Shown: positions 46,833 through 63,094, counted from the stretch's first letter. The stretch is 64,000 bases of DNA from Pseudomonadales bacterium (GCA_023300545.1 JALZVT010000167.1:153-64152), one strand, 5' to 3'. Translations and numbers: made by a program. Notes: generated from the sequence alone by a model not told the origin.

Positions 46833-48125
46833 ATGGGCTGTGACACGTCCGCTTACAAGTGTAAGAGCCAACTACAGGCTACTTACAACTGCCTTAAAGG
46901 CCTAGGCTCGCGCCTCTCTATACTGCTGCGAACACTAGCGAGTGCTGATAGCAGAGTCCTGATCGTGAGCGAAATTGCTAACCACAATGCCAACTATCTG
47001 TTGGGTCCGTCTGAGGCTTCGTTGCCTGTGGATATCAAGCAGGCTGATTTCGGTGCGCCGATGTCTTCTTTGTTTGGTATCAGCCGACACTACGTTCTCG
47101 CGGCTGCTCTGACTTGTTGTTACGTTGTTTTTTATTCGGCGTTGTCTGCCGCTGAGGTTATTAGTGCTTCTGGCAGCGTTGCCATTGGGCTGTTTGCTGC
47201 CTGGCTGTTAGGCGCACTGATGATCGTGCGCTGGGCCCTCGAAATCCCTCAACTCACGCTGAGTGCATCGCGGCTCGATGTGCTGCTCGCCATCTGGGTC
47301 AATACGGGGGTTGTGGCCGCGGCTACGCTCGCGGGTGGTGACATGCGGCTGATTTTGCTCGTCGGCGTTGTTTTTGGAGTGCTTTTCAGCGGCCTGCATT
47401 TCAACGAGTCACGGGTACGTACGGTGCTGTTGACCACCCTGGTGAGCTACACAGGATGCGTTATTTTGCGCGCAAGCTTTGCTCCGCTATCTTTTGAGTT
47501 TGAGTTACTGTGCGCTTTCGGACTTGCAGTATTTTTACTGGCAGCATCGCTGATCGCTCGCGAAATCATCCAGCTGCGCTTGCAGGCCCGCGCGCGAAAC
47601 CGACAATTGGCACAGGCTCTGCGCCGGGTAGAAGAGCTCGCTTTGCGTGATGAGTTAACCGGTCTCTACAATCGCAGGCATCTGCTTGATTTTGTTGAGC
47701 GGGCAGTGGCGACGCGCGAACGCGGTGGCCCTTCGTTTACGTTGGCCTATTGCGATCTTGACTATTTTAAGCGCGTGAATGATCGATTTGGCCACGAATG
47801 TGGTGATCGGCTGCTGAAGGCGTTTTCCAGCGCTGCATTGAGTTGTGTGCGTAACAATGATCTGGTCGCGCGACTGGGTGGCGAGGAATTTGTCTTGATT
47901 CTGGTCGATACAGACACCCAAAGGGCAGCGGAGATTGTTGAGCGTCTGCGTATGCGGACGGCAAACATCAGCGTGTCTTCAGCGGAACCTGACTACCAAG
48001 TCACAGTGAGTGCCGGGCTTGCGACACACATTGAGAATGACACGGTCGACAGTATCTTGCGGCGCGCCGATGGCGCGCTGTATCAAGCCAAAGAGCAGGG
48101 TCGGGATCAACTAGTCACCGTCTGA
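46833..48125 (+). CDS. Membrane-anchored diguanylate cyclase (GGEEF with RxxD I-site)
   Basis: Several N-terminal TMs, then DELTGLYNRRH, the I-site RNND (47850-47861) and GGEEF (47877-47891). The true start is probably downstream of 46833, for example TTG 47022 with GAGG 5 nt upstream, GTG 46966 or ATG 47061. Confidence 0.85.
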   Translation: MGCDTSAYKCKSQLQATYNCLKGLGSRLSILLRTLASADSRVLIVSEIANHNANYLLGPSEASLPVDIKQADFGAPMSSLFGISRHYVLAAALTCCYVVFYSALSAAEVISASGSVAIGLFAAWLLGALMIVRWALEIPQLTLSASRLDVLLAIWVNTGVVAAATLAGGDMRLILLVGVVFGVLFSGLHFNESRVRTVLLTTLVSYTGCVILRASFAPLSFEFELLCAFGLAVFLLAASLIAREIIQLRLQARARNRQLAQALRRVEELALRDELTGLYNRRHLLDFVERAVATRERGGPSFTLAYCDLDYFKRVNDRFGHECGDRLLKAFSSAALSCVRNNDLVARLGGEEFVLILVDTDTQRAAEIVERLRMRTANISVSSAEPDYQVTVSAGLATHIENDTVDSILRRADGALYQAKEQGRDQLVTV

Positions 48126-48320: not shown

Positions 48321-51300
48321 ATGTTAGGGCCCGAACAGGTTTGGCTCGATTTAATGGATGCAAACAGACGCCAGCATCTCCGGCAACCCATCTCACTAAG
48401 TGCGCTTGTGCATCCGCCACAGGGGCGCTCATGGTTGTGCACCATTCGCGACTTCTGCCAGAGCGGAATGCTGTTGACCGGTGCTGGTGGCAGCTCATCT
48501 TTGATGGCGACCGGTGGAAATTTTGATTCCGGCGCAGAAATCAGCCTGCATTTTTCGGTAGCTACTCCCAAGGGACAATTGCATTTCCGCCTGCCGTGCG
48601 TGGTCGCCCGTGTTCTCGATAATGGCGCGGGTATGGGGATTCGTTACCCTCAGGGCCTGCCGAGCGACGCGTTCGATGCGTTGCTGGAATACGCGGTCGC
48701 CTCTGGTACGGTTTCACGCCGAGAGTTTAGCGGTGATGCTGAAAGTACCAACGCTGTTGAGGGTCAGGTACCAGACGTGTTGCTGCGCGATCATCGTGTT
48801 AGTGAGCAAGACGCCGATCGTATCAAGCGCCGCCTACGCCGGGTGATGGAGCGCGCTGTCGAACGCATTAGTCGTAATTTCTACGATTCGGCGTCGAAAA
48901 ACTTGCTGTCAAAAGCTCGCGATGCTGGCACCAATGCCATGCAGATGATGTTTTTCGAAGGTCTTGATCAGTTGGAAAAAGGTGAGGCTCAGGTCAAAAG
49001 CAGTTTTGCTGAGTTGGTGCTGAAGCAGATTGATCAGGTCAGCGAATTTGAGTCGGTGTTGGAAAAACGTCGTCGTCGAGAAACTGGCAATACACAAAAG
49101 CTTGAGCTGGTCGATACCGAAGAGTTTGAAGAGTGGTTGGTGGTGGCGGAAGTCATATCCAAGGCTGAGGGCCGTTTTAGCGACACACTTGTCGACCTGC
49201 GCACGATGCTCGAATTGCTCGCCAAACCTTGGGGGCACAAAGATGTTGTACCCATTGGGCCGGCAGTTTTAACCTGGGCATTTGCAGATGCCATCGAAAC
49301 GCTAGAGTTTCGTCGTAACGTAAAATCAGAAGTATTCACCGAGTTTCAGAACACGCTGATTCCGGTGCTCGAAAGTTTGTATTCCGCGCTTACGACAATG
49401 CTGGATGAAACCGGTGTGTTTCCCAGTGTGGAAGAGCTGCGCACCGCGCAACTCCGTTCAACGCAACCCGCTAAACCTCGGGCTGCAGCCGAGCCGCCGC
49501 CAGTTCAAGATCCTGAGAACTATCAGGAGATGGACAGCGCTGTGCGTGAAGCGGCTATGGCGGTTGACGGTGTGTCGTCGCCGCGAGTGATGGCTGGGCA
49601 TGACCCTTTTGCGCCGTCGGTTCGAGGTGGCACTGCTGAAGTCTACAAGGCTGCCCGTGAGCTGCTGTCTCTCGGGCGTCAAACTCGCGAGCGTATGGGG
49701 CAGACTGTTGATGACCCGATTGCGCCGGACGATGCGCCTGATGCTGCTAAGTTCGCCAGCGACGACATTATGGAGGCATTCCAGCAGATTCAAAGCGAGC
49801 TGGGTGATACGACCTTAGACGACCAGCGGCTCAAGCCTCGCTTGATCGAAGTGCTGCGTCAGCGCCACGGCGACGCGAAAGGTTTTGGCGCTGCAGAGTA
49901 CGACACCATCAATGTGATGGAAAATCTGGTCGACTCTATGCAAGAGGATCAGCTGGTTACCGAGGGTGTTCGGGACTGGATTAAGCGACTAGAAATTACG
50001 CTGAACAAGGTTGCGGCGACTGACGAAAAATTCCTTGAGCACACCGCTGAAGAGCCACACTCTGCTGCGATGATGCTGAACCTGCTTGCGCGTTTGGGTA
50101 ACACCAATGACGCCAGTCAAGGTATTGATCGTGAAGTAGGACGGCGGGTAGATGCCGTACTTGAAAAGGTTGTTAACGACTACGACGAAAATCCAGAAAT
50201 TATTCAGGAAGCGGTAGATGAGCTCAATCCGCTCATCGATCGCCAAACTAAGGCGTATCGCGGCAATGTCGAACGAACGGTTCGAGCCAGTGAAGGGCAA
50301 CAAAAGCTGGCGCGTGCGCGACGCGCTGTTGTTGACGAAGTGGGCGACCGCATCGCCGACCAGGAAGTGCCGGACCTACTGGTAGAAATGCTCAACCCCG
50401 GTTGGCGCAACCTGATGGTTCACACCTATCTGCGCAACGGCATCGACAGCCCCGAATGGCGTGATGCGTTAACGGTTGTCGATCAGGTGAAACAGCACCT
50501 TACAGGTGAGACTTCGCCCGGAGACGAAGACTATGTGGAGCCCGAAGACATTCTGAAGCGGGTGGTAGGCGGCTTGAACGACATCTCGTTCGACCCTGCG
50601 AAACGCACACCACTGGTTATGAAATTGTCGTCTGCCATGGTGGGCGATACCGCCGGCGAAAAAATTGCAACGCAGCCGGTGCACACCGCTAAGGACGAGC
50701 TGATAGACGTGCTCGGCCTTGATGGCCTGTTGCCCGATACCGACCCGGGTATTGAGACCGAGGATGAGGACCTGCGCAGCAGTTGGTCTACTGCTCTCGA
50801 GCGTGCTCGGAGAATTCAGGTTGGCGAGTGGCTGGCAATCAGTGACGAGGATGGTCGGCCGCTTATTCTGACCGTTGCGTTTGTTGGTGATCAATACACG
50901 TTGTTTGTTCTGGTTAATCGCAAAGGTGTGAAAACCAAAGAGCTAAGCCTCAAACAGCTGACAGACGGTTTGCACCGTGGCGACATGACCCTGCTTGATG
51001 ATTACGACATGCCTCTCATGGAGCGTGCGTCCCAGCGTATGCTGCAGAATATGCATAATCAGCTCGCCTATCAGGCATCCCACGATGAGCTAACGTCGCT
51101 GCTTAATCGTAAAGAATTCGAACGTGGCATCGACAAGGCGATTAGCAAGGCCAAGGCAGATCACAGCGAAAGTGCGTTATTTCACCTCGATCTTGATCAA
51201 TTCAAAATTATTAACAATACCAGCGGTCATGCTGCTGGAGATGCGTTGCTGAAGCATCTGGGTGTGATGCTCAGTAGCTTTGCTGAGCCATATGATGGTC

Positions 51301-52352
51301 GCGTAGCGCGGCTAGGTGGTGACGAGTTTGGTCTGCACTTTGAAGGTATGTCGGCCGAAGACGTACGTCGTGTGGGTGGCGAACTGCTCGACACCATGCG
51401 CGAAGAGCGATTCCACTGGGAAGAGCGCGTTCACAGCCTATCAGCAAGCCTTGGGTTGGTGTTCGTCGACGAGTCGAGCGATGTGCAAGAGGTGTTAGTT
51501 TACGCGGAAGAGGCCTGCTACACGGCTAAAGAGTCCGGCCGTAATCGGATGCAGGAATTTGAACTTGGCGACAAGAAAATGATGCGTCGCCAAGGCGTTA
51601 TGGAGTGGGTGGGAGAGCTTGATCGGGCGCTTGATGAAGAGCGCCTGGTGCTTAATTGTCAGCGTATCGTGCCGATTAATCAGCATTCCCAGGTGCAGCC
51701 ACACTACGAGATTTTGCTGACGATGAGAGACGAGGAGGGCAATATGATGCCTCCCGCGGAGTTTATTCTCGCAGCCGAAACCTACAATCGCATGGTGCAA
51801 GTGGATCGTTGGGTGATTACCAACGTGTTCAAGTGGATTTCCGAACATCGCGATGAGCTCGACAATATATCCGGCTTTGCGATTAATATTTCTGGGCACT
51901 CGATGAACGACGAGGCGTTCGCAGACTTTGTGCTTGAGCAGTTCAGCAGCACTCAAACGCCAACGTCAAAAGTTTGCTTCGAGGTTACAGAGACGGCTGC
52001 AATATCAAACCTTGATAACGCGATTGATTTCATGAACCGAATGAAAATTATCGGTTGTCGGTTTTCGCTGGATGACTTTGGTACGGGTCTGTCGTCCTAT
52101 TCTTACCTGCGTAACCTGCCGGTCGATTACGTGAAGATCGACGGCGTCTTTGTCCGTGATTTGGTGGATAGCCCTGGAGACTACGCGGTAGTGCGCTCTA
52201 TCAATGAAATTGGCCATTACATGGGCAAGAAGACGATCGCTGAGTTTGTTGAGAACGACGAAATTCTCGCTCAACTTAAGGAGATCGGCGTCGACTATGC
52301 GCAGGGCTACGGCATACACAAGCCTTCACCGCTGAGCGAGCTAGTTCTCTAG
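48321..52352 (+). CDS. Multidomain c-di-GMP protein: PilZ-like N-terminus, DUF1631-like central region, GGDEF and EAL domains
   Basis: RRQHLR (RxxxR) and DFCQSG (DxSxxG with S to C) lie about 23 aa apart. The central ~700 aa are helical with segments I recall from DUF1631 (LLSKARDAGTNAMQMMFFEGL). GGDEF at 51315-51329. The EAL domain has EIL, NIS, EVTE, DDFGTG, KIDG, EFVE and QGY. Confidence 0.85.
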   Translation: MLGPEQVWLDLMDANRRQHLRQPISLSALVHPPQGRSWLCTIRDFCQSGMLLTGAGGSSSLMATGGNFDSGAEISLHFSVATPKGQLHFRLPCVVARVLDNGAGMGIRYPQGLPSDAFDALLEYAVASGTVSRREFSGDAESTNAVEGQVPDVLLRDHRVSEQDADRIKRRLRRVMERAVERISRNFYDSASKNLLSKARDAGTNAMQMMFFEGLDQLEKGEAQVKSSFAELVLKQIDQVSEFESVLEKRRRRETGNTQKLELVDTEEFEEWLVVAEVISKAEGRFSDTLVDLRTMLELLAKPWGHKDVVPIGPAVLTWAFADAIETLEFRRNVKSEVFTEFQNTLIPVLESLYSALTTMLDETGVFPSVEELRTAQLRSTQPAKPRAAAEPPPVQDPENYQEMDSAVREAAMAVDGVSSPRVMAGHDPFAPSVRGGTAEVYKAARELLSLGRQTRERMGQTVDDPIAPDDAPDAAKFASDDIMEAFQQIQSELGDTTLDDQRLKPRLIEVLRQRHGDAKGFGAAEYDTINVMENLVDSMQEDQLVTEGVRDWIKRLEITLNKVAATDEKFLEHTAEEPHSAAMMLNLLARLGNTNDASQGIDREVGRRVDAVLEKVVNDYDENPEIIQEAVDELNPLIDRQTKAYRGNVERTVRASEGQQKLARARRAVVDEVGDRIADQEVPDLLVEMLNPGWRNLMVHTYLRNGIDSPEWRDALTVVDQVKQHLTGETSPGDEDYVEPEDILKRVVGGLNDISFDPAKRTPLVMKLSSAMVGDTAGEKIATQPVHTAKDELIDVLGLDGLLPDTDPGIETEDEDLRSSWSTALERARRIQVGEWLAISDEDGRPLILTVAFVGDQYTLFVLVNRKGVKTKELSLKQLTDGLHRGDMTLLDDYDMPLMERASQRMLQNMHNQLAYQASHDELTSLLNRKEFERGIDKAISKAKADHSESALFHLDLDQFKIINNTSGHAAGDALLKHLGVMLSSFAEPYDGRVARLGGDEFGLHFEGMSAEDVRRVGGELLDTMREERFHWEERVHSLSASLGLVFVDESSDVQEVLVYAEEACYTAKESGRNRMQEFELGDKKMMRRQGVMEWVGELDRALDEERLVLNCQRIVPINQHSQVQPHYEILLTMRDEEGNMMPPAEFILAAETYNRMVQVDRWVITNVFKWISEHRDELDNISGFAINISGHSMNDEAFADFVLEQFSSTQTPTSKVCFEVTETAAISNLDNAIDFMNRMKIIGCRFSLDDFGTGLSSYSYLRNLPVDYVKIDGVFVRDLVDSPGDYAVVRSINEIGHYMGKKTIAEFVENDEILAQLKEIGVDYAQGYGIHKPSPLSELVL

Positions 52353-57190: not shown

Positions 57191-57772
57191 ATGAGTAACT
57201 ATCAGGTGCTTTTTAATGGGGTGGTCGCCGAGGGTGATGACGCCAGTAGTGTCGAGCGCGAGCTAGCAGGCGTTTTGGGCATTGATGCCAGCAAGGCGAA
57301 GCGCCTCTTTAACGGTCGCACCGTCGTACTGGCAAGCCAGCTCAGTCGCGATGAAGCGATGGATATGCAGGCTCGGCTAGAAAAGGTCGGTGCAATCTCG
57401 CGCATCAAAGACTTGACCCCCAAAACCCAGCAACCCCTCGACTACGAGTCTGATCGTAACGATGGCACGCTCCGTGATCTGACCGCTGCCCATATCGATT
57501 GTCCGCGTTGTGGCCATATGCAACTCGACTCTACCCATTGCGCCCGTTGTGGTGTTGATCTTGAGGCCTTGTTTCGCAAGCGTCGGAAAGACGAACTGTT
57601 GATGGAGAAAAAACTGCGCGATCACCGCGCGGCGCAGCAAAAGCAAGCTGAACAGGCTGCTAGTGCCGGTGTTGATGCTGGCAATGATGTTGTGGACAGC
57701 GGCCCCCGCGGGCCTGTTCAGGCAAAAGCCAAAAGTGGCTTCTTCTCCCGTCTGTTTGGTCGGTCAGCCTGA
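57191..57772 (+). CDS. Hypothetical protein with zinc-ribbon and C-terminal amphipathic tail
   Basis: 193 aa. N-terminal ~75-aa domain, CPRC...CARC zinc-ribbon (57500-57550), charged helical region and C-terminal KSGFFSRLFGRSA. Confidence 0.6.
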   Translation: MSNYQVLFNGVVAEGDDASSVERELAGVLGIDASKAKRLFNGRTVVLASQLSRDEAMDMQARLEKVGAISRIKDLTPKTQQPLDYESDRNDGTLRDLTAAHIDCPRCGHMQLDSTHCARCGVDLEALFRKRRKDELLMEKKLRDHRAAQQKQAEQAASAGVDAGNDVVDSGPRGPVQAKAKSGFFSRLFGRSA

Positions 57773-58723: not shown

Positions 58724-58855
58724 TTTGTCGCCGCACTCCCTTCTACCTAACGTTCATTGATAAGATACCCGCGACGCAAAGGTATTCTCCTTTAGCGTCA
58801 TCAGCCTGATCCGATGCGGTCCTAGTTTTATAATGACATTTCAGTACCTAGTTCG

Positions 58856-60625
58856 ATGAGTTCACCCAGTTCCACTCGTAACGTTGCGCATGTGATGAAA
58901 TACATGCGCACCATTTTGGGGCCCGAGCGGAGTTTTATGTGGCTCGCTATGGTCTATGGTGTTGGCATTAGTTTGCTGAGCCTCGCAACTCCCGTGTCTG
59001 TTCAGATGCTCATTAATACTGTTGCGAACACTGGTTTGACGGCGCCCTTGGTGGTTTTAGCCGTCAGTCTGTTCGTGCTGCTGTTGCTCGCCGGATTGCT
59101 GAATGCTCTGCGTATTCATCTTATGGACGTTTATAGCCGAAGATTCTATGCGCGCATGTTGTCTGAGGTTGCGTTGCGTTCAGTATTTGCGCTCAACCCG
59201 TATTTTGATGATCAGCAGAAAGGCCCACTGTTCAATCGCTACTTCGACATCATCATTGTTTTGAAATCGCTCCCGAACCTGCTTGTTGGGGGCTTCACGA
59301 TTGTGATTCAGGCGCTGGTCGGATTTGTATTGGTGTCGTTCTACCACCCGCTATTTCTCATTTTCAACATCGTCACCATTGGTTTGGTGTGGCTGGTGTG
59401 GCTGATCTGGGGGAAAAGAGCCATCGCCAGCGCGGTCGATCTGTCTCATCAAAAACACGCTGTCGCCGCGTGGCTTGAAGATTTGGGCGCGTCCAATGGC
59501 TTCTTTAAATCAGAGCGCCATATTGCCCAGGCGCTGGATCATACGGATTCGATGACAGCCGACTATATTAAGTCGCACAAGAAGCACTTTAGAGACCACT
59601 TCAGTCAGACGCTGGTGTTTGTGCTTATTTATGCGGGTGCCAGCGCGACGTTGCTCGGGCTAGGTGGCTGGCTGGTCATCCAGGGCGAGCTTTCGCTCGG
59701 GCAGTTGGTCGCGGCTGAGCTGGTGTTGTCGGTGGTTTACTACAGTATTTCCCAGCTTGGAACCTACTTCACTTATTACTACGATCTGTGTGGCGCTGTG
59801 GATGAGCTCGCCATGTTCTATGAAGTGCCACAAGAGACCGCATCTGGCGAACATCAACCTTCCCAAGATGATGCGAGGCTTGCCTTTGTTAATGCTAAAG
59901 GCGAGGCGCGCAGTAATGTGGCTACGCTGAACCTTGAGATTCCGAGCGGCGCACGGGTGATGGCGCACACTGCCGAGCACAGCATGCAACGCATGATTAC
60001 CAATCTACTCAAACACCACAGTTTGCCCAACGCGGGTTATGTGGCCCTTGGTGGTATCGATATCCTGGGGTTGGAAGCACACACCCTTCGACAGGTGATC
60101 ATGGTTCTGGATAGGCCTAACGCGATCGAAATGACGATTCGCGATTTTCTCGAACTCTCAGCGGTTGAGCGACAGCCAGAACGAATTCTTGAGGTGATTG
60201 AAACTGTCGGTCTTGGCCCGACAGTGGCGCAGTTGGAGCTAGGGCTCGACACGCTCATCGCCATGACCGGCTGGCCGCTCGACATCACCGAGACTATGAA
60301 GCTGAAACTTGCCTCTGCAATCATCGCTCAGCCCCGGGTGCTAGTTCTGAACGAGTTGTTTGACATGATGACCGAGCAGCAGTTGTTGCGTTCACTGGAT
60401 GTGCTGCAGCAACGATGCGCGTGCACCGTGATCTATTTCTCCAATCGTAACGCGCAGCTAAATTTTGATTCCTATCTGTATTTGCGACCGGAGCAGCAGA
60501 AGTTGTACCCCACCTTTGGCGAAATGCTTGCGGCAGAAGGTGCCGAAGCTCTTGGAATGGAAGCTCTTGATTTAACGAGCGGCAAACCTGACGGACTGCC
60601 AGATGGTGCTGGAGTAAGTCGCTGA
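58856..60625 (+). CDS. ABC exporter-like protein: type-1 exporter transmembrane domain plus degenerate (pseudo-)nucleotide-binding domain
   Basis: 589 aa, similar in size and layout to PrtD/AprD-type T1SS ABC proteins (no C39 domain). The N-terminal ~310 aa are polytopic. The C-terminal ~240 aa align by eye to the HlyB NBD, but Walker A, Q-loop, signature, Walker B Asp and H-loop are all substituted. Confidence 0.75.
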   Translation: MSSPSSTRNVAHVMKYMRTILGPERSFMWLAMVYGVGISLLSLATPVSVQMLINTVANTGLTAPLVVLAVSLFVLLLLAGLLNALRIHLMDVYSRRFYARMLSEVALRSVFALNPYFDDQQKGPLFNRYFDIIIVLKSLPNLLVGGFTIVIQALVGFVLVSFYHPLFLIFNIVTIGLVWLVWLIWGKRAIASAVDLSHQKHAVAAWLEDLGASNGFFKSERHIAQALDHTDSMTADYIKSHKKHFRDHFSQTLVFVLIYAGASATLLGLGGWLVIQGELSLGQLVAAELVLSVVYYSISQLGTYFTYYYDLCGAVDELAMFYEVPQETASGEHQPSQDDARLAFVNAKGEARSNVATLNLEIPSGARVMAHTAEHSMQRMITNLLKHHSLPNAGYVALGGIDILGLEAHTLRQVIMVLDRPNAIEMTIRDFLELSAVERQPERILEVIETVGLGPTVAQLELGLDTLIAMTGWPLDITETMKLKLASAIIAQPRVLVLNELFDMMTEQQLLRSLDVLQQRCACTVIYFSNRNAQLNFDSYLYLRPEQQKLYPTFGEMLAAEGAEALGMEALDLTSGKPDGLPDGAGVSR

Positions 60626-61647
60626 TGGCTGATACTGAAAAGCATATGCACCGCTTTGAAACGTTGCATTCTATTCGTATGCCGCGCGTGATGCGGGTGG
60701 TGGGTTGGTTGTTGTCGAGCGGTGCTGTGTTGTTGGTGTTGTTTTTGACATTTGTACCTTGGGTGCAAACAACCTCAGGCGCCGGTGTAGTGATTGCGCT
60801 TGATCCTAACGATCGAGTGCAGCAGATAAACGCGCTGGTCTCCGGTCGCATTCAAGAGTGGTTTGTGCGGGACGGTACCCATGTTGCTAAAGGCGATCCG
60901 ATTGTTCAGATTGTCGACAACGACCCGCAGTTGATTGAGCGTTTGCAAGATGAGCGTGCCCAGTTCCTAAATAAGCGCCTGTCTGTTGAACAGGCTAAGG
61001 CGACGGCTGAGATTGACCGAGAACGCATGCGGGGATTATTTGAGAAGGGGTTAGTCGCACGGCGAGAATATGAGCTAGCACGCATCAAGGTGGATGGTTT
61101 GCGTGGCGATGTGGCTGAGGCGGCTGCGGCCTTGAATCGAATCGAAGTATCACTATCAAGACAGTCGGTGCAGATTATTCGGGCACCCAGAGATGGTGTC
61201 ATATTGCGTGTAAATAGCAGCAACGCTGCCACAGTTATTAGTACGGGTGATGCGTTGGCGACCTTTGTGCCTGACAACGCCGAGCGGGCCGTTGAAATAG
61301 AAATTGATGGCCGAGATGTTGCGTTGGTCACCCAAGGTGCCACAGCTAGGCTGCAGTTTGAAGGTTGGCCGGCCGTACAGTTTAGCGGCTGGCCATCCGT
61401 TTCCTTTGGTACCTTTGGGGCCAAGGTATTGGCTATTGACCCATCCGCCAATCGGGCAGGACGCTTTCGCGTGTTGCTGGGTGTGGATGCTGCTGATCCG
61501 ATCGCCTGGCCCAACAAGCGCTTTGTACGCTATGGCGCCAAGGTGCGCGGTTGGATTCAACTGGACACCGTGCCGGCAGGGTATGAGGTTTGGCGGCAGC
61601 TGAACAACTTCCCGCCCAATCTGGTCGAAGCCCCGGTGGGCATCTGA
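60625..61647 (+). CDS. HlyD-family periplasmic adaptor (membrane fusion protein), short coiled-coil type
   Basis: 340 aa. N-terminal TM (VVGWLLSSGAVLLVLFLTF), lipoyl-like half (INALVSGRIQEWFVRDGTHVAKGDPIVQI), alpha-hairpin of about 70 aa, then IRAPRDGVIL and a beta-barrel region. The start overlaps the ABC stop (TGATG). Confidence 0.85.
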   Translation: MADTEKHMHRFETLHSIRMPRVMRVVGWLLSSGAVLLVLFLTFVPWVQTTSGAGVVIALDPNDRVQQINALVSGRIQEWFVRDGTHVAKGDPIVQIVDNDPQLIERLQDERAQFLNKRLSVEQAKATAEIDRERMRGLFEKGLVARREYELARIKVDGLRGDVAEAAAALNRIEVSLSRQSVQIIRAPRDGVILRVNSSNAATVISTGDALATFVPDNAERAVEIEIDGRDVALVTQGATARLQFEGWPAVQFSGWPSVSFGTFGAKVLAIDPSANRAGRFRVLLGVDAADPIAWPNKRFVRYGAKVRGWIQLDTVPAGYEVWRQLNNFPPNLVEAPVGI

Positions 61648-61651
61648 CATC

Positions 61652-63094
61652 GTGTTTATGACCCGACGTCTGTTGTTTGTGTCGCTAGTTGCGACAGCAC
61701 TTCTCTGCAATGCCCCTAGTGTGGCTGCTCGTGACGCAGATTTGACGGCAAACGAAGTGCTGCAATCATCACTACAGCATTTCCCGCAAATTTTGCAAAA
61801 GCTGGCCCAGCGCCGGTTGGTAGCCGGTCAAGCGCTGAGCGCCGAAGGTGCCTTTGATCTGGTGTTTTCTGCAGATGGTTACTCCCGTGCAAGTGGGTTT
61901 TGGGATGGCAGAGCGTTGTCTGGAACTGCCCAGCAAGATCTGGGTCGTGGTGGCGTTAGCCTGTATGGCCAATACCGGCTGTCCGGGGGTAGCTTTCCAA
62001 TTTATGAAGACGAGTACTTCACCAATGCTGGCGGCGAATTCAAGGTGGGTGTTCTGTTCTCACTGTTACGCGACCGCTCTATCGACCAGCAACGCTTTGC
62101 ACGGCGTGATGCCGCACTTGCCGTTCGCGCGGCAGATGTGCAGGTGTTGCTGACCAAGTTGGGTGTGCAGCGACAGGCGCTTATTGCTTACTGGCGTTGG
62201 GTAACAGTAGGTAGCCAGATCAGTGTTTATGAAGACCTGTTGCGCAACGCACGCGAAAGAGAATCTGGGTTGATTGAGCAGGTACGTAGCGGCGCTCAGG
62301 CAGAGATATCGTTGACCGAAAATCGGCAGAATATTACCCGCCGCCAGGCGCTTGTTACGGCCTCCAGGCGCGAATTTGAACAGGCGGCGAATAGCCTGAG
62401 TTTCTACCTTCGCGGAGCTGATGGTGCGCCAATGCGCCCGACGGCTGCTCGATTGCCAGGTACGGCTACTGCCTTTGAAACTATTGCCGTGAACGCTATT
62501 AAATTCCCTGCAGTAGACCTTGCTCGTGCGAACCGTCCGGAGCTTCAGTTGCTCGATAATGCGATTGAGCGAACGCTGCAGCGTATTGCGCTCGACGAAA
62601 ATGCGCTAAAGCCAAAGCTGAACCTGGACGTTGGTTTTGCCAGAGACGTTGGTGGTATCGCTGAGGGTGGTCGTAGCCGTGAGGGTACAGACACTGTATT
62701 CGGGCTGGAGTTTTCGGTGCCGCTGCAACGCCGGGCTGCGAAGGGTAAGTTGCAACAAAGCAAAGCCAAGCTAGAGGTGCACCGACAAGAACAGCGGCAA
62801 CTGCAAGACGAAATCGAAATAGAGCTGCGGAACATTGTTTTGGAGCTAAACGCTGCACGCGAGCTGGCTGATTTGGCGCGATTGGAAGTAGGGCAGGCGC
62901 AAACGCTGCGCGATGCGGAACAAACGCGGTTTGAGCGTGGAGCTAGTGATTTCTTTCTGGTTAACCTGCGCGAGCAGGCTGCGGCTGATGCTCAGCGACG
63001 CCTTCTTTATGCGTTGCTTGAAGCACGGATTGCACGAACAAACTATGACGCGGCAGTGGTTGATCTTGGTCGCTTGGGGTTGGGTAAGCCTTGA
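61652..63094 (+). CDS. TolC-family outer-membrane channel protein
   Basis: About 480 aa with a signal peptide (LLFVSLVATALLCNAPSVAARD) and two-fold repeated helical/beta structure typical of outer-membrane efflux proteins. Start is GTG 61652 or ATG 61658, 4-10 nt after the adaptor stop. Confidence 0.82.
   Translation: MFMTRRLLFVSLVATALLCNAPSVAARDADLTANEVLQSSLQHFPQILQKLAQRRLVAGQALSAEGAFDLVFSADGYSRASGFWDGRALSGTAQQDLGRGGVSLYGQYRLSGGSFPIYEDEYFTNAGGEFKVGVLFSLLRDRSIDQQRFARRDAALAVRAADVQVLLTKLGVQRQALIAYWRWVTVGSQISVYEDLLRNARERESGLIEQVRSGAQAEISLTENRQNITRRQALVTASRREFEQAANSLSFYLRGADGAPMRPTAARLPGTATAFETIAVNAIKFPAVDLARANRPELQLLDNAIERTLQRIALDENALKPKLNLDVGFARDVGGIAEGGRSREGTDTVFGLEFSVPLQRRAAKGKLQQSKAKLEVHRQEQRQLQDEIEIELRNIVLELNAARELADLARLEVGQAQTLRDAEQTRFERGASDFFLVNLREQAAADAQRRLLYALLEARIARTNYDAAVVDLGRLGLGKP

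Follow-up and report, generated by a model that had tools for sequence, protein, structure and literature searches.

A 64,000-nucleotide (nt) stretch of DNA from a Pseudomonadales bacterium (GCA_023300545.1 JALZVT010000167.1:153-64152), called the window below and numbered from its first letter, carries three closely packed genes predicted to encode an inner-membrane protein with the fold of an ATP-binding cassette (ABC) exporter, a periplasmic adaptor, and an outer membrane factor (OMF) of the TolC family. By its motifs, the gene 1 product is ATPase-dead. What should be its nucleotide-binding domain (NBD) is better described as a pseudo-NBD, and comparison of family members shows a domain that has lost every ATP-binding and catalytic motif and yet has long been kept under purifying selection. 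The reading we prefer, with a probability of about 0.45, is that the three proteins may form an envelope-spanning conduit, derived from a type I secretion-like pump, that exports a small substrate without hydrolyzing ATP itself and uses the pseudo-NBD as a gate. An initial annotation of the same DNA had framed the operon as a tripartite machine that may be either energized differently or used for a non-transport role, and the findings below support that framing.

An exporter fold with a pseudo-NBD

The sole Pfam match of the gene 1 product is to ABC_membrane (PF00664), scoring 33.3 bits against a cut-off of 28; ABC_tran (PF00005) is not matched. The best NCBIfam models are those of the type I secretion system (T1SS) protein LssB, bacteriocin_ABC and HlyB, at about 85-90 bits against cut-offs of 520-725, with alignments that extend through the NBD region. 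The individual scores against curated T1SS models all miss the cut-off, with 84.7 versus 725 for HlyB (TIGR01846), 59.0 versus 510 for PrtD (TIGR01842), and 89.6 versus 693 for LssB (TIGR03375). HlyB and ComA are the closest bacterial sequence matches in the Protein Data Bank (PDB). Foldseek, given the AlphaFold2 (AF2) model, finds its top match in ATP-bound HlyB (8dck_A, E = 7e-21, TM-score 0.72), and the other top matches are PCAT1 and the outward-facing or occluded forms of TmrAB and TM287/288, with E near 1e-20 for HlyB, PCAT1, and TmrAB. Inward-facing exporter structures align less well, with TM-scores of 0.55-0.6. By these comparisons the modeled fold is that of a type IV ABC exporter; Pfam finds neither FtsX nor MacB_PCD in gene 1, and the modeled fold is not type VII. 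The first transmembrane helix (TM1) begins at about residue 10-25, so that only about 20 residues precede it, and neither Pfam nor the AF2 model places an N-terminal accessory domain there. The initial annotation had remarked on the lack of a C39 peptidase or C39-like domain, and rightly so.

A canonical ABC ATPase has a Walker A motif GxxGxGK[ST], a Q-loop Gln, the signature LSGGQ, a Walker B motif hhhhDE, and an H-loop His. The equivalent positions in gene 1 were read by aligning the window protein to HlyB and to relatives in which Walker A is present (Table 1). The pseudo-NBD was already part of the initial annotation, and the alignments carry it from one protein to a family. All six motifs are non-canonical in the window protein, in the 30 aligned family members, and in the 62 short representatives of 50%-identity clusters, and the same replacement motifs are common to all 30 aligned members. 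At Walker B, most members have VLVLGQL where the window protein has VLVLNEL, and the D-loop aspartate D503 is the sole canonical element retained in the window pseudo-NBD. Precomputed domains for the best 120 database homologs (58-89% identity, about 580-590 aa) agree in that PF00005 is absent in 120/120, with PF00664 present at most. Because dead motifs are found throughout these 120 homologs and the 30 aligned members, they are a property of the family and not a lesion in a single genome.

Mean pairwise identity over the pseudo-NBD is 59% among the 30 members, and conservation peaks at about 0.91 column identity in 2 places, one at residues 411-430 (LRQQIIVLDRPNAIEMTIREYL), which replace the Q-loop, and one at residues 471-490 (TGWPLTITETMQLKLAAAIIA), which replace the signature and the helix that follows it. 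The old motifs have given way to new invariant residues, namely K386, R412, R420-P421, G472-W473-P474, E479, and D503. The transmembrane domain (TMD) is the best-conserved part of the protein, with a mean pairwise identity of 75% that takes in the cavity-lining helices TM1 and TM6 and both coupling helices, which are listed in the family alignment as ALNPFF and SNGFFKS and are invariant among the 30 members. The periplasm-facing loops of the TMD are also highly conserved and could be adaptor-docking surfaces. In canonical exporters, the coupling helices, the Q-loop, and the signature region make up the TMD-NBD transmission interface and the NBD-NBD interface. Since the interface elements are retained, conformational coupling between the pseudo-NBD and the membrane domain probably still matters in this family.

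Relatives and the course of motif loss

An exhaustive search of 1.84 billion representatives at 50% identity returned 1136 matches at E <= 1e-30. The closest clusters, about 55 in number (28-61% identity, 545-590 aa), are all without Walker A, Walker B, and signature. Walker A is intact (GPSGSGKS) in the next tier (30-36% identity, 690-800 aa), which has a variant signature PLSxGQ and often the Walker B Asp, and whose proteins are extended at the N-terminus by about 190 aa. A C39 or cyclic nucleotide monophosphate (cNMP)-binding identity for this extension was considered and dropped, as Pfam gives no match even at E 10. Within this tier, from P0176 to P0270, catalytic motifs are lost patchily and apparently repeatedly. 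The locus of P0183 is an operon of ABC(733), membrane fusion protein (MFP)(445), and OMF(493), with a MarR gene upstream.

To tabulate the motifs, states were assigned from a MAFFT alignment of 133 full-length representatives. The 62 short forms have lost all motifs. Walker A, Walker B DE, and signature are kept together in only 10 long forms, while 18 keep Walker A alone and 17 have lost all three. Even where Walker A is intact, the catalytic Glu, the Gln of the Q-loop, and the His of the H-loop are missing in most cases. Given such mosaic loss across the clade, the window family looks like the end point of a drift away from ATP hydrolysis among T1SS-like tripartite systems, and it has also shed the N-terminal domain, together with about 100 aa of adaptor.

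The invariant residues and these relatives also bear on whether the pseudo-NBD is a pocket that has been remodeled. The domain might bind a nucleotide or some other cytoplasmic ligand, with binding but no hydrolysis gating the exporter in the way that ATP gates CFTR. The newly fixed residues in place of the old motifs speak for this, and the relatives that have Walker A and the Walker B Asp and lack the catalytic residues suggest a binding-only intermediate. The P-loop of the window family, however, has a two-residue insertion and no Gly-Lys-Ser/Thr, the A-loop has lost its aromatic residue, and Pfam recognizes no ligand-binding family in the protein, so we regard a remodeled pocket as very unlikely.

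The adaptor and the outer membrane channel

Gene 2 scores above the Pfam cut-offs for HlyD_3 (56.5 bits), HlyD_D23 (35.6 bits), and Biotin_lipoyl_2 (31.2 bits), domain matches that assign its predicted product to the HlyD superfamily of MFPs. It stays below the cut-offs of the NCBIfam subfamily models, with 82.6 versus 94.9 for TIGR01730 and 67 versus 208.7 for TIGR01843, and its only PDB sequence matches are HlyD (8dck_C) and EmrA (4tko). The initial annotation had called the adaptor short, at 340 aa with a hairpin of about 70 aa; the length is correct, and the hairpin is modeled at about 78 aa (Table 1).

Gene 3 contains 2 tandem OEP (PF02321) repeats (97.8 bits, E = 9e-28) and by this match is predicted to be an OMF of the TolC family, so that the operon carries a TolC-family gene of its own, as had been claimed. 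The protein begins with a hydrophobic N-terminal leader or signal peptide and is without a good lipobox. It has no PDB sequence match and no match among NCBIfam subfamilies.

Conservation of the triad and its surroundings

When one genome per GTDB species was scanned, at least 471 species had a relative. Neighborhoods were compared at 83 loci, which include the best 80 of the matches from those at least 471 species, by clustering open reading frames (ORFs) of at least 70 aa. Genes for the ABC protein and the adaptor are found at 83/83 loci and the OMF gene at 78/83, and the five apparent absences lie at contig ends, which is consistent with a complete triad at all 83. The three proteins have sizes of about 585, 345, and 485 aa, and the gene junctions mostly measure -4 to +15 nt, with outliers that come from over-long ORF calls. 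This arrangement is far beyond chance. Among the best 80 loci, the Gammaproteobacteria are represented by Halieaceae, Woeseiaceae, Pseudomonadales, Wenzhouxiangella, Lysobacterales, Pseudohongiella, Congregibacter, and Pseudohaliea, and the Alphaproteobacteria by Erythrobacter, Porphyrobacter, Kordiimonas, Parvularculaceae, and Hyphomonadaceae. Between the two classes the three proteins are 54, 60, and 47% identical, which indicates that they have diverged in parallel.

The same triad surrounds relatives that are just 31-36% identical to the window protein, and it occurs on 17 plasmid records, mostly sphingomonad megaplasmids, among them pNL2 of Novosphingobium aromaticivorans. The initial annotation had made its interpretation depend on the three genes being conserved together, and this is what the loci, the distant relatives, and the plasmids have in common. 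In the verified pNL2 member, from strain DSM 12444, the ABC protein is also without Walker A and signature. Separately, two plasmid records of Persicobacter (Bacteroidota) have a homolog of the pseudo-ABC protein, and the cassette may thus have crossed phylum boundaries. On the 57-kb plasmid pHAL16 of Sphingobium sp. KCTC 72723 (L091 1362-13032), the triad has DUF2309 upstream and a LysR regulator and carbonic anhydrase downstream; these neighbors may reflect a link to inorganic-carbon handling, or a coincidence.

An operon in which all ATPase motifs are lost could be taken for a functionless, decaying relic of a T1SS or of an ABC efflux pump. The three reading frames are intact, though, relatives persist in at least 471 species, the pseudo-NBD holds its 59% identity with newly fixed residues, and the system is kept down to 31% identity and on plasmids. 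We give this idea almost no credence, and it is effectively refuted by the conservation.

The main rival to the conduit that we favor invokes an ATPase partner that is not linked to the triad. ATP would be hydrolyzed on behalf of the complex by a canonical ABC half-transporter or ATPase whose gene lies elsewhere in the genome, acting either as a heterodimer partner of gene 1 or as one of several ABC dimers in a 3:6 assembly like that of HlyB/HlyD. There are well-known heterodimeric ABC exporters in which one site is degenerate, and TM287/288, TmrAB, and BmrCD are among the structural neighbors of gene 1; furthermore, HlyB/D assembles three ABC dimers (8dck/7sgr). The difficulty is that, with Walker A and signature both lost, both composite sites of a head-to-tail NBD dimer would be defective, whereas in heterodimers known to be degenerate one site is fully canonical and the degenerate site can still bind ATP, as is established for ABC architecture. 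A second ABC gene is found in none of the 83 triad loci, and an ORF resembling a canonical ABC ATPase lies within 10 kb in only 1 of them. The cassette moves as a three-gene unit among very different contexts and onto plasmids, which also speaks against a partner, and on balance we consider one unlikely. The initial annotation had allowed that the triad might prove to be a well-characterized family served by a separately encoded ATPase. With an ATPase ORF near 1/83 loci, and with no curated model, structure, or experimental paper found for the family, it does not have that appearance.

The other question for the neighborhoods is what might be carried. The initial annotation had found no RTX-like, GG-leader, or other candidate substrate gene beside the operon, and this holds beyond the window, in that no gene besides the triad is conserved across the 83 loci. 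A conserved cargo gene next to the triad is absent among ORFs of at least 70 aa, ORFs below 70 aa not having been searched systematically. A conserved fourth gene of any kind, whether cargo, ATPase, or regulator, was rejected, since only the triad and shadow ORFs recur.

Flanking genes are heterogeneous from locus to locus. By Pfam, the immediate upstream neighbors are Pyr_redox_2 in 9/79 (a matter of Erythrobacter synteny), LysR in 8/79, and MarR in 2/79, none exceeding about 11%, and no family exceeds 2/75 immediately downstream. The commonest real neighbor cluster is a LysR-type, OxyR-like regulator present at 20/83 loci, the other frequent clusters being shadow ORFs. At about 13/83 loci such a gene directly adjoins the triad (L014 8817-9719, L019 1084-1986, L031 6827-7726, L033 8580-9530, and L043 8696-9598, among others), with scores of 190-216 bits against the OxyR cut-off of 329 and without a cysteine equivalent to C199. 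The adjoining subfamily may be a dedicated regulator. A link to OxyR and peroxide was rejected, as these adjoining copies have no C199 equivalent and fall below the cut-off, and a true OxyR occurs at 4 loci only, 3-6 kb away. A shared upstream operator was likewise rejected, because k-mer enrichment in 62 non-redundant upstream regions brought up only GC-rich background, and Rfam matches no RNA element upstream. DUF6491, found 4-5 kb upstream on the other strand of two unrelated genomes (L001 5210-5671 and L002 4646-5059), forms no recurrent cluster over the 83 loci and is put down to coincidence.

Proposed mode of operation

If the triad is the conduit that we prefer, its ancestry would lie among ABC pumps of the type I secretion or peptide-exporter type, and an ABC-fold homodimer would be joined, similarly to HlyB/D-TolC or MacAB-TolC, by short adaptors that are anchored in the membrane and arranged in a ring, and by a TolC-like trimer as the channel. 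Strict co-conservation and parallel divergence of the three proteins lend indirect support to a complex of ABC dimer, MFP hexamer, and OMF trimer. Still tied mechanically to the membrane domain, the pseudo-NBD would gate or couple without catalysis. What leaves by way of the adaptor-TolC duct would be one specific substrate, conserved and either a small molecule or a peptide, with no ATP hydrolysis by the complex itself, and the drive would be an ion gradient, as in coupling to the proton motive force (PMF), or the gradient of the substrate, amounting to facilitated efflux. A small substrate is favored because there is no linked cargo, the hairpin length resembles that of MacA/AcrA, and LysR or MarR regulators are found at a minority of loci.

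Several points weigh against this proposal. No ion-coupling residues peculiar to the pseudo-NBD subfamily came to light; both E288 in TM6 and YHP are present also in relatives that keep Walker A. The AF2 model of gene 1, consisting of six long transmembrane helices and an alpha/beta C-terminal domain, is of only moderate confidence (predicted local distance difference test, pLDDT, 73). The model of gene 2 is poor overall (pLDDT 61), only its transmembrane helix and hairpin being confident. Judging from that hairpin, a short adaptor joined to an inner-membrane partner without a periplasmic domain is perhaps too short to bridge a normal periplasm.

There is also a reading without transport. The assembly might span the envelope as a static tether or scaffold, act as a sensor ("transceptor"), or regulate the outer membrane channel by sequestering or positioning it, with the ABC fold retained only as an assembly platform. 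No energy source is visible in the sequence, the highly conserved periplasm-facing loops would suit such a role, and dead transporter homologs are known to be reused as receptors or regulators, as in SUR, Snf3/Rgt2, and UhpC. Yet the TMD is the part most conserved, with its cavity-lining TM1 and TM6 and its coupling helices under more constraint than a passive anchor needs, the OMF and adaptor co-evolve with the ABC protein as in a working conduit, and efflux operons typically have local LysR/MarR regulators such as these. A non-transport role is improbable on this evidence.

Textbooks present tripartite efflux and type I secretion systems as driven by ATP or the PMF, and those of the ABC types are assumed to need a working ATPase. 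More tentative than the proposal for this operon is the wider one that a whole radiation of T1SS-like tripartite machines has abandoned ATP hydrolysis; the pseudo-NBD gate would here be operated by a ligand or partner, and export would run on the proton or sodium motive force or down a gradient. If that is true, an ABC fold would here for the first time be the basis of a tripartite trans-envelope exporter that does not run on ATP. That a large conserved family without a known ATP-binding motif keeps its coupling interface, its adaptor, and a channel of its own raises the question of how conformational change or transport is driven. The natural series that runs from relatives with Walker A only to fully dead proteins offers material for studying the loss of the motor in ABC pumps. 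There is also a practical side, since current annotations of the family read "ABC transporter ATP-binding protein" or "efflux RND adaptor", and the labels "ATP-binding" and "RND adaptor" mislead inventories of resistance genes and transporters. The member on pNL2 of N. aromaticivorans DSM 12444 makes the question experimentally tractable.

Layout of the operon and its flanks

The tight packing of the three genes, the overlap and gap between them, and the TATAAT hexamer ahead of them had all been noted in the initial annotation and are present at the positions it gave. The features are collected in Table 1.

Table 1. Features of the operon in the window
Feature	Position	Strand	Basis
Perfect TATAAT, candidate -10 element, 22 nt before gene 1 ATG	58829-58834	+	sequence
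Gene 1, inner-membrane ABC-exporter-fold protein with predicted ATPase-dead NBD-like domain, 589 aa	58856-60625	+	ORF, Pfam
TMD, residues ~20-325, six long helices	58913-59830	+	AF2 model, family alignment
Coupling helix ALNPYF	59189-59206	+	family alignment
Clade motif FNRYFDI	59231-59251	+	family alignment
Clade motif YHP	59342-59350	+	family alignment
Coupling helix SNGFFKS	59492-59512	+	family alignment
Clade motif GQLVAAELV	59699-59725	+	family alignment
Pseudo-NBD, residues 341-556	59876-60523	+	alignment to HlyB and family
A-loop equivalent LAFVNAKGEA, aromatic residue lost	59879-59908	+	alignment to HlyB
Walker A equivalent HTAEHSMQR, two-residue insertion, no GK[ST]	59966-59992	+	alignment to HlyB
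Q-loop equivalent VLDRPNAIEMTIRDFL, core VLDRPN	60104-60151	+	alignment to HlyB
Signature equivalent TGWPLDITET (WPLDITET)	60266-60295	+	alignment to HlyB
Walker B/D-loop equivalent VLVLNELFD; VLVLNEL at Walker B	60338-60364	+	alignment to HlyB
H-loop equivalent VIYFSNRN (YFSNR)	60428-60451	+	alignment to HlyB
TGATG stop/start overlap, gene 1/gene 2	60623-60627	+	sequence
Gene 2, predicted membrane-fusion/periplasmic adaptor protein, 340 aa	60625-61647	+	ORF, Pfam
Gene 2 N-terminal TM anchor, residues 21-43	60685-60753	+	AF2 secondary structure
Gene 2 alpha-hairpin, residues 103-180, ~78 aa, helices 103-140 and 146-180	60931-61164	+	AF2 secondary structure
Gene 3, predicted TolC-family OMF, 480 aa	61652-63094	+	ORF, Pfam

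The TGATG overlap is consistent with translational coupling of genes 1 and 2. Gene 3 may start at GTG 61652 (480 aa) or at ATG 61658 (478 aa), and the gap from the gene 2 stop codon at 61645-61647 is 4 or 10 nt depending on which is used, in line with the 4-10 nt first reported. From the gene overlap alone we infer a single transcript for the three genes. Intrinsic terminators or internal promoters that would divide the operon were rejected, the scan matches inside it being at chance level.

The TATAAT copy ahead of gene 1 is the only one on the + strand of the window, and both strands together have 2 where shuffled sequences lead one to expect about 7. As the hexamer is depleted in the window, its occurrence ahead of the operon is the more noteworthy. 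The -35 sequence paired with it, CTGATC, is poor, and a consensus promoter scan of the window did not call the site. A 5' untranslated region starting from this element would be very short and without a clear Shine-Dalgarno sequence. Among the 83 loci, the 25 nt before the ABC start are without a recognizable Shine-Dalgarno sequence in most members, the window included, while the downstream genes are coupled by overlaps. Such a lack ahead of the first gene suggests low or specially controlled initiation of translation.

The operon is flanked by murI upstream and by nth downstream on the opposite strand, neighbors that had been named correctly and that Pfam confirms. The rest of the window is made up of housekeeping genes, including SMC, ribonucleotide reductase, argF/argD/argG, and glpK, and among its ORFs and Pfam matches there is no RTX-like gene, GG-leader gene, or ABC ATPase gene. 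Between argG and murI lies a 193-aa ORF (57191-57772, + strand) with weak zinc-ribbon and L7/L12-C-like matches that are below cut-offs. Farther upstream, a 1343-aa protein (48321-52352, + strand) has PilZ, DUF1631, GGDEF, and EAL, an unusual union of receptor, synthesis, and breakdown domains for cyclic di-GMP, and a separate GGDEF protein is encoded just upstream of it at 46833-48125.

Comparison with known systems

The operon plan of an ABC protein and an MFP, with an OMF in some cases, is shared with HlyB-HlyD-TolC, LssB-LssD, and the PCAT1/ComA/CvaB exporters. The type IV fold of the gene 1 model is nearest to HlyB and PCAT1, the TM6 motif GQLxA is found in HlyB too, and gene 2 is anchored by a transmembrane helix and most similar to the adaptors HlyD and EmrA. 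Unlike HlyD, which has 478 aa, gene 2 is about 140 aa shorter and has the hairpin of about 78 aa. Type I secretion differs also in that the window family has no ATP motifs, no C39 or C39-like domain, and no linked RTX or GG-leader cargo at the 83 loci, and the scores of gene 1 against curated T1SS models are 6-8 times below their cut-offs. In size and hairpin length the adaptor resembles MacA and AcrA, and the window family is like MacAB-TolC, AcrAB-TolC, and EmrAB-TolC in its dedicated OMF, in the LysR or MarR regulators at some of its loci, and in having no linked protein cargo. Their pumps are different, however, in that MacB is a type VII ABC protein and the others are RND and MFS pumps, whereas gene 1 has another fold and is without a periplasmic domain. 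No recognized PMF-coupling machinery was identified in gene 1 by Pfam or fold comparison.

The closest relationship is with the sister clade represented by P0183 and P0186, which has 30-36% identity over TMD and NBD, the motifs NRFFDV, YHP, and LGQLVAAEL, the same ABC-MFP-OMF order with overlapping junctions, and MarR upstream at some loci. It is distinguished by the N-terminal domain of about 190 aa, the longer adaptor (445 aa), and a Walker A that is kept with patchy catalytic loss.

One member of the family has probably been reported. The "HlyBD2-OMP2" genes of Blastomonas fulva T2 measure 1659, 1053, and 1503 bp (about 552, 350, and 500 aa) and follow the same order; their best matches are to N. 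aromaticivorans DSM 12444 (PMC9505733). They were labeled in silico only, as an ABC-type multidrug/haemolysin-type pump, and the missing ATPase motifs go unmentioned (PMC9505733). It is by the sizes, order, and best matches that we tentatively assign them to the family of the window operon. Full-text searches and a review yielded no description of an ATPase-dead T1SS-like ABC protein, and no mention was found of the locus tags of the N. aromaticivorans triad, SARO_RS19820-19810, of which SARO_RS19820 is the counterpart of gene 1. In NCBIfam and PDB no curated model or solved structure covers the pseudo-ABC family.

There is precedent for ABC-derived proteins that are no longer ATP-driven pumps. 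SbmA/BacA has an ABC-type membrane domain that works without an NBD and is driven by the PMF, and CFTR and SUR are ABC proteins repurposed as a channel or a regulator. The likeness to the window family is in that departure from ATP-driven pumping, while there is no family-level homology to any of them and none is part of a tripartite MFP-OMF system. In SbmA the NBD is wholly lost, whereas the window family keeps a conserved pseudo-NBD.

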